A stretch of 64,000 bases of DNA, from NCBI RefSeq assembly GCF_057098645.1, contig NZ_CM169472.1; one strand, 5' to 3'. The notes under the pieces are model-generated. The model saw only the letters and a program-made list of their open reading frames with translations. It did no database searches and was not told the DNA's origin. Each line of letters begins with the position of its first letter. The first letter of the stretch is position 1. This document shows positions 47,995 through 53,614 of this stretch, piece by piece. The translations under genes and the position numbers were made by a program.

Positions 47995-48118
47995 TGCTCC
48001 TGCCATAACGTGAAGAAGCAATGACCTGGTGGTCCGTGACTTCCCTACGCTGGCATTATCCAGATCAGGTGATACGGGTATTTCTCAGCCTTCACGCAGA
48101 AGGGCACCCCGAGTCGTT
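47995..48118 (-). promoter_or_regulatory. TPP (THI-box) riboswitch in the thiM 5' leader
   Basis: Minus-strand leader reads ...ggggtgcccttctgcgtgaaggctgagaaatacccgtatcacctgatctggataatgccagcgtagggaa..., the conserved THI-element core (CUGAGA, ACCUGAUCUGGAUAAUGCCAGCG). Confidence 0.8.
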
Positions 48119-48212
48119 TGGTTGCGATGATAAATCGCAGAGGAGGATGGTAATGTCCAGCGCACGCGTTGTAAACGAGGAAAAACGGCAGTTTTACAAT
48201 CGCGTTAATAAA

Positions 48213-48485
48213 TTATTTGATATATGAATCCAGCACCTTCAGAACGACATCCAGATCTTCTTCACGTTTTAGCTCATCCCCCTGGTGAACGATGTGTTCC
48301 GTCAGATGACCTTTAATCACTTCCCGCATCAGACCGTTTACCGCGCCACGGATAGCAGCAATCTGTTGTAAAACTGCAGCGCATTCGTGCGGCTCGTCGA
48401 GCATTTTCTTGAGCGCCACGACCTGGCCCTGAATCTTACTGGCACGCGCTTTCAGTTTCTGTTTATCACGGATTGTATGAGACAT
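48213..48485 (-). CDS. rcnR: Ni/Co-responsive repressor RcnR (CsoR/RcnR family)
   Basis: 90-aa all-helical [24 protein letters not shown]... Confidence 0.9.
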
Positions 48486-48533
48486 GGCAACACCTGGTTA
48501 ACAAGAATATGAAAAATCATAGCACTATTAATC

Positions 48534-48568
48534 TACTGGGGGGTAGTATCAGGTACTGGGGGGGAGTA
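48534..48568. promoter_or_regulatory. Two tandem RcnR operators of TACT-G6/7-N-AGTA type in the rcnR-rcnA divergent promoter region
   Basis: tactggggggtagta (48534-48548) and tactgggggggagta (48554-48568). Confidence 0.7.
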
Positions 48569-48605
48569 GAATCAGATTGCCGAATTAATACTAAGAATTA
48601 TTATC

Positions 48606-49430
48606 ATGACCGAATGTACAACTCTTCTTCAGCAAGGAAACGCCTGGTTCTTCATCCCCAGCGCCATCTTACTTGGTGCGCTTCATGGCCTGGAACCAGG
48701 GCACTCAAAAACGATGATGGCGGCGTTTATCATCGCCATCAAAGGCACCATTAAACAAGCGGTGATGCTCGGACTGGCAGCAACTATTTCGCATACCGCA
48801 GTGGTCTGGTTAATTGCCTTTGGCGGGATGGTGATCAGTAAGCGCTTTACTGCTCAATCAGCAGAACCGTGGCTCCAGCTGATTTCCGCAGTGATCATTA
48901 TTAGCACCGCGTTCTGGATGTTCTGGCGTACCTGGCGCGGCGAACGCAACTGGCTGGAGAATATGCACGGGCATGATTATGAGCATCATCATCACGATCA
49001 CGAAGATCACCACGACCATGGACATCATCACCATCACGAACATGGCGAGTATCAGGATGCCCATGCACGAGCCCATGCCAATGATATTAAACGACGCTTT
49101 GATGGTAGAGAGGTCACCAACTGGCAAATTTTGTTATTTGGCTTAACAGGTGGTCTTATCCCCTGTCCGGCAGCAATTACCGTGCTGTTGATTTGCATTC
49201 AGTTGAAAGCCCTGACACTGGGCGCAACACTGGTCGTCAGTTTCAGCATTGGCCTGGCGTTAACGCTGGTCACCGTAGGCGTTGGCGCAGCAATCAGCGT
49301 TCAGCAGGTCGCAAAACGCTGGAGCGGATTTAACACTCTCGCTAAACGCGCCCCCTATTTTTCCAGTCTGTTGATTGGCTTAGTTGGTGTGTATATGGGC
49401 GTACATGGCTTCATGGGCATAATGCGATAA
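48606..49430 (+). CDS. rcnA: Ni/Co efflux membrane protein RcnA with histidine-rich cytoplasmic loop
   Basis: 274-aa ORF with loop HGHDYEHHHHDHEDHHDHGHHHHHEHGEYQDAHARAHA between TM segments. Confidence 0.9.
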   Translation: MTECTTLLQQGNAWFFIPSAILLGALHGLEPGHSKTMMAAFIIAIKGTIKQAVMLGLAATISHTAVVWLIAFGGMVISKRFTAQSAEPWLQLISAVIIISTAFWMFWRTWRGERNWLENMHGHDYEHHHHDHEDHHDHGHHHHHEHGEYQDAHARAHANDIKRRFDGREVTNWQILLFGLTGGLIPCPAAITVLLICIQLKALTLGATLVVSFSIGLALTLVTVGVGAAISVQQVAKRWSGFNTLAKRAPYFSSLLIGLVGVYMGVHGFMGIMR

Positions 49431-49648: not shown

Positions 49649-49987
49649 ATGACCATTAAAAATAAGATGTTGCTGGGTGTGCTTTTGCTGGTTACCAGTG
49701 CCGCCTGGGCCGCACCAGCCACCGCGGGTTCGACCAATACCTCAGGAATTTCTAAGTATGAGTTAAGTAGTTTCATTGCTGACTTTAAGCATTTCAAACC
49801 AGGTGATACCGTCCCAGAGATGTACCGCACCGATGAGTACAACATTAAGCAGTGGCAGTTACGTAACCTGCCCGCGCCTGATGCCGGGACGCACTGGACC
49901 TATATGGGTGGCGCGTACGTGTTGATCAGCGACACCGACGGTAAAATCATTAAAGCCTACGACGGTGAGATTTTTTATCATCGCTAA
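49649..49987 (+). CDS. rcnB: Periplasmic Ni/Co homeostasis protein RcnB
   Basis: ORF 49469..49987; likely start MTIKNKMLLGVLLLVTSAAWA (signal peptide) at 49649, 112 aa. Confidence 0.8.
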   Translation: MTIKNKMLLGVLLLVTSAAWAAPATAGSTNTSGISKYELSSFIADFKHFKPGDTVPEMYRTDEYNIKQWQLRNLPAPDAGTHWTYMGGAYVLISDTDGKIIKAYDGEIFYHR

Positions 49988-50068: not shown

Positions 50069-51103
50069 TTAGTCGTATTTCACGTTGATTAATGCGGTTG
50101 CCTCCAGTGCGCCAGATTTAACTTTGTTTGTATCGTAGACGTAGTAACTGGCTGTTATCGGAATTGAAACCGTTGTATCTGTAAGTTTTGACTTTGCCGC
50201 AATTTCTTTTAAATTTGTGTATCCTTTGCTGTTATCAGTGATATTTAAAAGTGTGACTGGCGAACCATTACTTTCAAGAATAAATCCTACGCCATTATCT
50301 TCCGCACCTTTCAGTATTGTGTTGCTGTTGGTTAACAAGTCAGAACTTGATAAATACACCTGCATTTTCCGTGATGTTTGATTTTGTTGACCTAATAAAT
50401 TTTTACAACGCAGAATAATATCCCCTTTTTTACTATTTATTGTTGCTTTGTTACCTGTGGCTGGTAATTGTGAAACGGGAATACCCTCTAAAGTAATTAA
50501 TAAATCGTCCGGTTTGCAGGTTGTGGTTATCGGGTTGTATGACAAGGTCAGATTAAAGGAATAGACACCTGCATTTTGTGCCAATGCATTTCTATAGCTA
50601 TTTACACATGCATCCCATGACTTGCCACCTAATAAACACAGTAGAAATTGTACTGCGGCACTCCCGCGTGTCGATGATGAAGCACTGGATAATGTCGCAA
50701 CACCATTAATCATCACTGAACCGCCGCCCCCCGCAGAAACATTCACTTTTGCATTACTGGCCGCAGGTGTCACCGTTACCGAATAACCATTGGTGAAACT
50801 GGTCTGATTATTTGACAACGTGATGTTATTTTTATTGGTCCATTCAAAATGTAAATTTAATTTAATGGTATCGTTATAAAGTCCAACAATAATATCCGAC
50901 GGGCTCATAGGGGTGATAGTATTTGTACTCACGCATGACGAATCATTAAAATTATGCTCATATGTCGCCATTTGTGTTTGAGTAAGTGCAAAATCCCCCT
51001 GAACAACCAAGTTGTGCTGAACAGATAACTCACTATAACATGCCGCATAGCTCACAGGCATAACCATCATCATTAATATAAATAGCATTATGCGAATTTC
51101 CAT
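50069..51103 (-). CDS. yehA: Fimbrial adhesin-like tip protein (chaperone-usher pilus)
   Basis: 344-aa ORF with signal peptide and Ser/Thr/Asn-rich beta-strand composition typical of fimbrial subunits. Confidence 0.75.
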   Translation of the reverse strand: MEIRIMLFILMMMVMPVSYAACYSELSVQHNLVVQGDFALTQTQMATYEHNFNDSSCVSTNTITPMSPSDIIVGLYNDTIKLNLHFEWTNKNNITLSNNQTSFTNGYSVTVTPAASNAKVNVSAGGGGSVMINGVATLSSASSSTRGSAAVQFLLCLLGGKSWDACVNSYRNALAQNAGVYSFNLTLSYNPITTTCKPDDLLITLEGIPVSQLPATGNKATINSKKGDIILRCKNLLGQQNQTSRKMQVYLSSSDLLTNSNTILKGAEDNGVGFILESNGSPVTLLNITDNSKGYTNLKEIAAKSKLTDTTVSIPITASYYVYDTNKVKSGALEATALINVKYD

Positions 51104-51118
51104 AGAACCACCTGACTA

Positions 51119-53599
51119 TTACTGGCAAATATAATTTCTACTTTCATCAATCTCTTTACCGAAGGTGATTGTGCATGAAAGTCCTTGTTGCTTATCAATT
51201 GCTACATTAACCGATGGCGGTACTTCATTGGTGCGAATAAATAACTGGCTTCCCTGACCGACAACGCCAATATTATGACCATGGATATCATTGACTTCAT
51301 AACCAAACATTAATGGTTGCCCATCCGCTCTTAACGCTTTTATAAACCAGGGCTTGCGCTGATCGGTATCAAAATTAACCAGTACAACCGCGCCGCGATA
51401 AGGGGCGGCAATTTTCCGGTTGCCACGTAATTCTGCTTCGCTATCGCTTTGCGACACATCCAGCATCAGGTGATTTTCCCGATAAGGTGTCATTCCGTCG
51501 TATACCACCACTCCATTACGGTTTGTTGTGCGATATTTTTGCCCATTGACATAAGCATCTTTAATTCCTGGGGCATTCATCACAGCAAACGTTTCGGAAA
51601 GACGGTTCGCCAGATTAACGCCACCCGACCAGGCGACAATGCCCCCAGAAACACTGGCTCCAGCCTGTCGATAAGTACTCGACTGACTATAACTGCCATT
51701 CACTGTCGCAACCGGCGCGTTCCAGGTCAAATTCGCCCCAGCTGTCGTTTCATTTCCCTGATGCTGATAACTCAGGTTGACCCCATAGTTAAACTGATCC
51801 CGGCTTCCAACGGTTCCTGATAATCCCGTATTATTTGAGGCAAACCCCTGATCATCAAACGTCGTTGAGTTAGACATATATATTTGCCGACGAGGCGTCG
51901 TAACGTCATCACCCCAATCAAAGGGAATCGATATAAAAATATTAAATCGTTTCTCTTCATGATGATTCTCGTCATAAGCCTGGCTTGCCGCGAGGGTATA
52001 GCTTATCCGCCGCCAGTTATTGGAATAACTCAACTGATAATCCTTACTGCTGCCGCTACGTCCCCAGTAATCTCGCCATAACGTACTTAAGGACACAGAA
52101 CCCCAGCCTTCTGGCAATGACTGGCTCATATTGGCAGAAAAGCTATTTTTACGGCCAAAATCGTTCTGGTAATAATCGGCAATGTCATAGACATCGTTTT
52201 CATCACGGCGATAATTATCTTTATTGTTTGCCCAAACGTGATCATTAAATGTCCGGTAATCACGCGATGAATAACGCCAGGCCGCAAGACCAAAACGCGT
52301 CGACGTTTGGCTCACAAATTTGTTGTAGGCAATTTGATAACTTTGCCCGTCAAACACATCGCCGTTGTCTTGTTTACTATGCGACTTAGTGGCATCGACG
52401 GAAATGGCACCAATGCGTGTATTCCAGCCAGTCCCCAAAGTAAACGCGTAATAATTATTCGCGACCATCGAGCCGCCATACAGCGTCAATAAATTATTAA
52501 AACCATACTGATAACCCACCTGGACAAATTCACTTTGTTTGCTCGCCCCTTCAATATGGCTACGACCCGCCGCAAAATCATATTTCGACACGCCGGGTTG
52601 CAGCATATTTGGCACCGCTGCATAAGGCACCAGATAGGTGGTTACCGAACCGTCCGCCTCTTTCACGCTGACATCAAGATCTGCTCCACCACCGGCCAAC
52701 TGCAAATCTGTAATCGCGAACGGGCCAGGAGGAACCTCTTTCTGATAAACGACAAAACCATTCTGTTCAATAGTTACCAGCGCGTTACTCTGAGCAATCC
52801 CCTGCACCCGTGGCGTAAAATTTTGTTTCGAGTTAGGCAACATCTGCATATCACGAAACAACCGCACACCTCTGAAGCGAACAGAATCAAAAATATCGCT
52901 TGATGTGTACATATCACCCACGCGAAGCGTGCCGAGAAGTTGGGCAAATCCACGTTCCAGATACAGGGTATTGCTTTTCCACACCCCTGGATTGTTATTT
53001 GTTTTACTGAAACTGGCATCAGAATGCAGTTGCCACCCCAGTAAATTTAACCCGCTGTTAAAACGTACATATGTACTCTTGTTATTACCCGACGCTTTAT
53101 AGTCGCTGTAATACTGACTCAGATAATAAGAGGTATAAAACGCATTAATACCCCGCTCCCAGTTTTCCGGTGGAACATAGCCACTTTCCAGTTCTTCCAC
53201 CCAGGCCTGCGGGACACTGAAATCGAGACGAAAAACCCCGATATCCCAGGTATAGCTCCCACCCTGAACAAGTTGCTCAAATGTTAAACATTGCTTACCG
53301 CTGGCGAAGTTATCGCTATTAATGCCTAACCGCTTGATAACTTCTCTTGATAAACATGTTTCTTGCGGGTTGTCTTTAACAATAATCTCATATTTCCCGC
53401 GCCATTGCTTATTGACATAAATATCGATGTCATACTGCCCCGGTAAGGGTTGATTATCATCAAGACGAATATTTGCAACCTGCTGGTCTTTCATTCCACC
53501 TATCATAAAATGGGTATCAAAGGTTTCTTCAGCTGCATAAGCTTCAATGCCGAGCAATAACGCTACGATTGCTGATGCAAGTGGGGTCATTCTCAACAT
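51119..53599 (-). CDS. yehB: Fimbrial outer-membrane usher
   Basis: ORF 51119..53614; likely start MLRMTPLASAIVALLLGIEAYA (53599); about 826 aa, usher-like. Confidence 0.85.
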   Translation of the reverse strand: MLRMTPLASAIVALLLGIEAYAAEETFDTHFMIGGMKDQQVANIRLDDNQPLPGQYDIDIYVNKQWRGKYEIIVKDNPQETCLSREVIKRLGINSDNFASGKQCLTFEQLVQGGSYTWDIGVFRLDFSVPQAWVEELESGYVPPENWERGINAFYTSYYLSQYYSDYKASGNNKSTYVRFNSGLNLLGWQLHSDASFSKTNNNPGVWKSNTLYLERGFAQLLGTLRVGDMYTSSDIFDSVRFRGVRLFRDMQMLPNSKQNFTPRVQGIAQSNALVTIEQNGFVVYQKEVPPGPFAITDLQLAGGGADLDVSVKEADGSVTTYLVPYAAVPNMLQPGVSKYDFAAGRSHIEGASKQSEFVQVGYQYGFNNLLTLYGGSMVANNYYAFTLGTGWNTRIGAISVDATKSHSKQDNGDVFDGQSYQIAYNKFVSQTSTRFGLAAWRYSSRDYRTFNDHVWANNKDNYRRDENDVYDIADYYQNDFGRKNSFSANMSQSLPEGWGSVSLSTLWRDYWGRSGSSKDYQLSYSNNWRRISYTLAASQAYDENHHEEKRFNIFISIPFDWGDDVTTPRRQIYMSNSTTFDDQGFASNNTGLSGTVGSRDQFNYGVNLSYQHQGNETTAGANLTWNAPVATVNGSYSQSSTYRQAGASVSGGIVAWSGGVNLANRLSETFAVMNAPGIKDAYVNGQKYRTTNRNGVVVYDGMTPYRENHLMLDVSQSDSEAELRGNRKIAAPYRGAVVLVNFDTDQRKPWFIKALRADGQPLMFGYEVNDIHGHNIGVVGQGSQLFIRTNEVPPSVNVAIDKQQGLSCTITFGKEIDESRNYICQ

Positions 53600-53614
53600 A
53601 GGCAGCTCCTGCAA

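Follow-up and report, generated by a model that had tools for sequence, protein, structure and literature searches.

The rcnR-rcnA locus and its surroundings

The DNA analysed, called the window throughout, is a stretch of 64,000 nucleotides from contig NZ_CM169472.1 of the NCBI RefSeq assembly GCF_057098645.1. It belongs to an E. coli O145:H28-type chromosome, and many chromosomes of E. coli O145:H28 match a 1,351-bp rcnR-rcnA query taken from it with 100% identity. Among 5,426 complete E. coli genomes, 5,369 contain a match to this query. The interval 48486-49430, to which the original prediction referred, comprises the rcnR/rcnA intergenic region and rcnA. The genes concerned are listed below, with the evidence for each in brackets.

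48213-48485, minus strand: rcnR, Ni(II)/Co(II)-responsive repressor of the CsoR/RcnR family, 90 aa (NCBIfam, Pfam, K-12 identity)
48606-49430, plus strand: rcnA, Ni/Co efflux permease of the NicO family, 274 aa (NCBIfam, Pfam)
49649-49987, plus strand: rcnB, periplasmic accessory protein of the efflux system, 112 aa (Pfam PF11776)

The names rcnR and rcnA are those given to the matched features in the annotation of the 100%-identical O145 genomes, and the protein family memberships found here agree with them. The RcnR reading frame scores 197.3 bits against the NCBIfam equivalog NF011613 (cut-off 138) and 75.8 bits against Pfam PF02583, also above the cut-off; its scores against the FrmR and RicR models stay under the cut-offs of those models. 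The metal ligands of RcnR are His3, Cys35, His60 and His64. All four are present in the translation (MSH3...HEC35...GH60LTEH64), as is the RASK DNA-binding motif, which lies within KARASKIQ; the motif is named in PMC3902906. RcnA matches the nickel/cobalt efflux model NF007454 of NCBIfam over its full length with 555 bits (cut-off 195) and the NicO family of Pfam (PF03824) with 235.8 bits. RcnB scores 67.8 bits against PF11776, above the cut-off, and has the position and length of K-12 b2107; a search of NCBIfam with RcnB gave no match.

The minus-strand 90-aa ORF and the plus-strand 274-aa ORF are separated by an intergenic region of 120 bp (48486-48605). This region is identical to that of E. 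coli K-12 MG1655, the RcnR protein is likewise identical, and the gene order thiD-thiM-rcnR-rcnA-rcnB-yehA-yehB is the same. RcnA differs from its K-12 counterpart only by F4C and H134D. Hence, the locus is almost certainly the canonical E. coli rcnR-rcnA(-rcnB) nickel/cobalt efflux system with a shared divergent control region, and none of the results speaks against this. It is an ordinary and already known locus, with the control region of the laboratory strain K-12; it represents textbook metal homeostasis, and its presence in an O145 chromosome adds nothing new.

Several features flank the system. Between thiM and rcnR, the thiM leader holds a TPP riboswitch (RF00059; 71 bits, gathering score 54) at 48025-48121 on the minus strand. 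A plus-strand ORF of 68 aa (48021-48227) overlies this opposite-strand riboswitch and is almost certainly spurious. Downstream of rcnB, yehA- and yehB-like genes for a fimbrial adhesin and usher occupy 50069-53614 on the minus strand, as in K-12.

Two operators in the divergent control region

The original prediction placed two G-tract operators between rcnR and rcnA, with their starts 20 bp apart. Both are present there as exact matches.

48534-48548, no strand assigned: RcnR operator site 1, TACT-G6-T-AGTA, exact sequence TACTGGGGGGTAGTA, G-tract at 48538-48543 (exact match, K-12 identity)
48554-48568, no strand assigned: RcnR operator site 2, TACT-G7-AGTA, exact sequence TACTGGGGGGGAGTA, G-tract at 48558-48564 (exact match, K-12 identity)

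Site 2 is a case of TACT-G6-N-AGTA in which N is G. At both sites the TACT and AGTA inverted repeats stand 7 bp apart, and these 7 bp open with an unbroken G6. The ORF map and the annotation of identical genomes place the pair between the divergent rcnR and rcnA, which is the K-12 layout. In the whole 64 kb, the pattern TACTGGGGGGNAGTA is matched by these two sites only, and a tolerance of up to two mismatches brings up no others. Since shuffled sequence gives a mean of only 0.18 matches even at the two-mismatch threshold, a chance occurrence of the pair is ruled out.

The two TACT-G6-N-AGTA sites of the K-12 rcnR-rcnA region are the published RcnR operators according to three papers (PMC3902906, PMC7055735, PMC7105576) that refer to Iwig & Chivers 2009 and Blaha et al. 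2011. The proposal that the sites fit the RcnR recognition motif is thus borne out, as the control region and RcnR are both identical to those of K-12. Because the sequence is identical to a characterised region, the prediction is supported and the feature it describes is at the same time one already known.

For binding, stoichiometry and metal response, what can be said of the locus comes from the literature. According to the same three papers, RcnR binds the E. coli operators with a stoichiometry of 1:1, one tetramer per site, and contacts the TACT/AGTA repeats; the unbroken G-tract has an A-form-like character and serves shape readout; both rcnA and rcnR are repressed; and the binding of apo-RcnR and its release by Ni(II)/Co(II) are known for the identical K-12 sequence (PMC3902906, PMC7055735, PMC7105576). 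A related kind of site is the type-2 operator of CsoR, for example in Streptomyces lividans or B. subtilis. The repressors share the fold family PF02583, and both kinds of site are G/C-tract pseudopalindromes with GTA dyads. In a CsoR type-2 site the AT-rich repeats stand about 11 bp apart, the G/C tracts are short and two in number, and two tetramers bind; each site in the window instead has one unbroken G-tract with a spacing of 7 bp and takes a single tetramer (PMC3902906). The tandem type-1 pair of E. coli K-12 has the same 120-bp sequence, both operators, the 20-bp register and RcnR; the control region is without difference, and the two loci are told apart by F4C and H134D in RcnA, with one His fewer in its loop.

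Promoter elements and the proposed regulation

An alignment (MAFFT) of the intergenic regions of 78 species loci, described in the next section, was used together with the sequence itself to propose the promoter elements and a further conserved block.

48567-48572, plus strand: putative rcnA -10 hexamer TAGAAT, overlapping the right half-site of operator 2 (conservation)
48516-48524, minus strand: putative extended -10 of the rcnR promoter, TGCTATGAT (sequence and conservation)
48587-48605, plus strand: conserved A/T-rich, Fur-box-like block TAAGAATTATTATCATG just before the rcnA start codon, the block extending to 48608 (conservation, 14/19)

We infer that TAGAAT is the -10 element of rcnA and TGCTATGAT the extended -10 of rcnR. 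Positions 48569-48572, which lie outside the AGTA half-site, are 70-90% conserved across species. Similarly, TG, T1, A2 and T6 of TGCTATGAT are 90% conserved in the 78 aligned regions, and the neighbouring bases are not. A generic sigma-70 scan proposed two other candidates, TTGCCG-16-TATTAT (48577-48604) and, on the minus strand, TTAACC-18-TACAAT (48501-48472). Both were rejected, as they would put transcription starts inside or at the coding sequences and do not match the conservation pattern.

With these elements, site 1 would lie over the -35 regions of both promoters, and site 2 over the rcnA -10 and the spacer preceding it. If TAGAAT is the rcnA -10, it follows that G-tract 2 would stand within the rcnA promoter spacer. 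Taken together with the published work, the following sequence of events may be proposed. Metal-free RcnR tetramers would occupy the two adjacent type-1 operators, one on each TACT-G6-N-AGTA site, recognising both the inverted repeats TACT/AGTA and, between them, an uninterrupted G-tract of unusual shape. As the sites appear to span the -35 regions of both promoters as well as the spacer and -10 of rcnA, bound RcnR would keep rcnA-rcnB repressed, together with its own gene. On binding Ni(II) or Co(II) at His3, Cys35, His60 and His64, RcnR would then leave the DNA, and the RcnA pump would be made. The His/Asp/Glu-rich loop of RcnA presumably captures or senses the metal.

The A/T-rich block before rcnA is conserved at 48591-48608 across the 78 sequences. 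At 48587-48605 it agrees with the Fur-box consensus GATAATGATAATCATTATC at 14 of 19 positions on both strands, a score (14 or more) attained by only 16 of the 913 tiles of the window. The gene rcnA is listed in a Fur iModulon (PMC10164565). This block may be a binding site for Fur or may act in the initiation of translation. In Kosakonia, its counterpart is a perfect palindrome, GAGAATTATTCTC.

Conservation of the operator geometry across species

A scan with RcnR, taking one genome per species, collected 80 loci from Escherichia, Citrobacter, Salmonella, Raoultella, Kosakonia, Rahnella, Hafnia, Erwinia, Edwardsiella, Morganella and a Vibrio. A usable upstream region was available for 78 of these, in which 156 sites were scored; the two unscored loci are L018, where the intergenic region is deleted, and L019, with only 84 bp of upstream sequence. 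Every scored locus has at least one site (78/78), and 69 of the 78 have two or three: two sites are found in 60 loci, three in nine and one in nine. The distance between TACT and AGTA is 7 bp in 151 of the 156 sites, 6 bp in two and 8 bp in three. Neighbouring sites, which form 78 pairs, start 20 bp apart in 66 cases, 21 bp in 11 and 19 bp in one. No element of the region is better conserved than site 2, which is present in all 78 scored species loci; site 1 is kept in most of the 78 species. In the alignment the two sites are approximately 90-100% conserved, and the 4-bp spacer between them is not. The loci with three sites are those of the Kosakonia/Phytobacter group, which carry an additional AACT-G7-AGTT 21 bp upstream.

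The G-run itself is less uniform, with a G7 core in 82 of the 156 sites. In some species it is interrupted (for example, TACTAGGGGGGAGTA and TACTGGGTGGTAGTA), and the 7-bp spacing is nonetheless kept. The constancy of spacing and register across species is a mark of strong purifying selection, and such a pattern of conservation is to be expected where a protein binds a dyad with strict geometry. This bears on another explanation, in which the G-runs act mainly as non-B DNA such as a G-quadruplex, or as the site of another regulator, with recognition by RcnR being secondary. Two runs of G6-7 do lie near each other on one strand, and a separate conserved Fur-like block is found nearby. Yet the conservation of the TACT/AGTA arms with an exact 7-bp spacing is the signature of a dyad protein site, and this spacing persists where the run is broken, which makes the explanation extremely improbable. 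A G-quadruplex, judged on the sequence and not by computation, was rejected because two G-runs are too few for a stable intramolecular structure.

From Escherichia to Vibrio, and on IncHI2 plasmids as well, the 7-bp spacing and the 20-bp register hardly change, in agreement with the shape-readout model in the literature. For example, the rcnR-rcnA region of the IncHI2 plasmid pK29 is 77% identical overall and has the same two operators 20 bp apart.

The pK29 copy (Klebsiella; L092, locus 1197-2707) is a mobile rcnR-rcnA copy, found on approximately 420 plasmids, and its RcnA of 371 aa is of the long-loop type. Another exceptional locus is that of Escherichia whittamii (L018), which lacks the entire intergenic region and the 5' end of rcnA, so that the rcnR start codon adjoins approximately codon 12 of rcnA. 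This loss looks like a deletion between the short CCTGGTT repeats present at both ends.

Variation of G-tract length within E. coli

Within E. coli, the 71-bp core of the control region (48516-48586) is unchanged in 4,392 of 5,272 matching genomes, and 876 more show one to three differences. Many of these differences do not touch the tracts but are base changes elsewhere, for example CATG for CAGG in the spacer (LF82) and CACCATT for CACTATT. The tract lengths were counted with altered-tract queries against about 5,350 complete E. coli genomes, with the following result.

Site 2, G6: 118 genomes (exact match)
Site 2, G8: 97 genomes (exact match)
Site 1, G7: 27 genomes (exact match, query with a longer left flank)
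Site 1, G5: 36 genomes (70-nt query)

The 70-nt G5 query was taken to seed only on genuine G5 genomes, and its 36 matches are accordingly read as the G5 count. A 72-nt query for G7 at site 1 found no match, which was attributed to the low-complexity masking of both G7 runs, leaving no 28-base seed, and not to biology. Single genomes have G9 (SA31-1) or G5 plus G5 (25DN). Altogether, a non-standard tract length is found in approximately 5% of complete E. coli genomes and nearly always deviates by plus or minus one base. When compared across strains, as the original prediction had proposed, the tract lengths are therefore not invariant, and its description of the G-tracts as prone to slippage holds in a modest form, with some 5% of complete genomes off by one G.

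The variants are partly associated with lineages. For example, all six separately deposited O111 records that were examined (11128, RM9322, 110512, FWSEC0005, 8B and 14614) have G6 at site 2, and G8 is found at this site in at least four records named O121. O157:H7 is mixed, with G6 in EC4115, SS17, TT12B and Z1814 and G7 in PV15-279, Z563 and 2149. Changes in length also recur in unrelated backgrounds, including K-12 derivatives, and one O145 relative of the window has G6 at site 2.

A separate kind of change is seen in E. coli N47 (L006, NZ_CM165890.1, locus 229-283), in which a 20-bp tandem duplication, TACTGGGGGGTAGTATCAGG, results in three operators in register; it is known from one assembly only.

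The variation might be ascribed mostly to homopolymer errors in sequencing or assembly, the true sequence being invariant. Many of the variant records are from long-read-only projects (a dozen NZ_CP027xxx records stand among the first 60 matches to G6), and two of the odd assemblies have rcnA called as a pseudogene, namely SA31-1, the G9 genome, with an internal stop and strain B2 with a frameshift. It is likely that some of the tract variants are such errors, and error could also account for the singletons. However, G6 in six O111 records and G8 in at least four O121 records are coherent by lineage and not random, and a similar rate, approximately 3%, is found among the species representatives. 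As the main explanation, error is therefore rather unlikely.

Far less credit can be given to the G-tracts as a contingency (phase-variation) locus, in which slipped-strand changes of length would reversibly switch rcnA/rcnR through the half-site and promoter spacing. Such a switch would agree with the counts given above for both sites, with the recurrence of the changes in unrelated backgrounds (K-12 derivatives, one O145 relative and some O157:H7 strains, though not all) and with the placement of G-tract 2 in the putative rcnA promoter spacer. The tracts are, however, short (6-7), and the same length is found in approximately 95% of E. coli genomes and the same spacing in 151 of the 156 sites of 78 species; they are not free to drift, as shown by the 4,392 of 5,272 genomes identical over the 71-bp core; the variation is almost wholly of plus or minus one base; and the O111 length looks fixed rather than switching. 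A search of the available literature found no link of rcnA or rcnR to homopolymer or phase variation. These points make phase variation very unlikely.

Phase-variable promoters of Neisseria and Haemophilus typically have homopolymer tracts of 9 or more. They are alike in having a G-run in the promoter spacer, a putative one in the case of rcnA, and apparent single-base length differences between isolates, whereas the rcn run is shorter (6-7), has one length in approximately 95% of genomes and is conserved across genera. Rather than a phase-variation switch, the G-tracts look like a mutational hot spot under constraint: the plus-or-minus-one spectrum, the 95% majority and the constancy across genera suggest a slippage-prone tract held by purifying selection.

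Possibly, and with rather less than even probability, G6 in the O111 records examined, G8 in several O121 records and the sporadic G5 and G7 at site 1 are real regulatory variants, and the tract a hot spot that repeatedly supplies them. If so, the altered half-site spacing and rcnA promoter spacer would retune basal and induced Ni/Co efflux, and the N47 duplication would imitate the arrangement of three sites that Kosakonia and Phytobacter have by nature. What the present comparison adds to a known locus is a quantified conservation of operator geometry and a set of operator alleles that differ by one base and follow lineages: in at least O111, a major Shiga-toxin lineage, and probably in O121, a site is one G shorter or longer. 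Should these alleles alter repression, they would provide a natural test of how strict the spacing requirement of RcnR is, and might explain strain differences in nickel/cobalt tolerance.

The His-rich loop of RcnA

The second part of the region concerns the RcnA protein, whose His-rich loop falls between its two membrane halves.

48966-49043, plus strand: segment coding for the His-rich loop, residues 121-146, HGHDYEHHHHDHEDHHDHGHHHHHEH (translation)

The original prediction described a loop with about 17 His in 26 residues. The 26-residue His-rich loop is confirmed, but it has 16 His, together with 4 Asp and 3 Glu, 17 being the K-12 figure; the difference of one His is due to H134D in this allele.

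The loop is a known in-frame length polymorphism. A 251-bp loop query has the same length in approximately 87% of E. coli genomes, and in-frame length differences, from -39 to +33 nt, are found in approximately 12%. A total of 673 genomes falls in the identity bands of 80-95%, and the members sampled from these are 236 to 284 bp long, all at multiples of 3 from 251. For example, rcnA has 786 bp in LF82 against 825 bp in the window, and the loops of two O157:H7 strains differ by one HD repeat. The loop region corresponds to a VNTR reported in Salmonella Paratyphi A (PMC2658671), where, as in E. coli, the repeat number varies in frame within the His-loop coding region; set against this VNTR, the window carries the common 274-aa length class, which it shares with K-12.

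Between species the loop is highly variable: at one extreme it has short HD/HE repeats, and at the other an insert of about 100 aa. This insert is conserved (IDTGHG.VELSIFE...W.LRTLSG...IPEPH.F.V.L.LGH.GH.H.Y) in many genera, with shorter His runs on its flanks, and is absent from E. coli; its carriers include the species loci L036, L040, L049, L051, L072, L075, L083, L091 and others. In the genome 81EVA, an IS3 element lies within rcnA.
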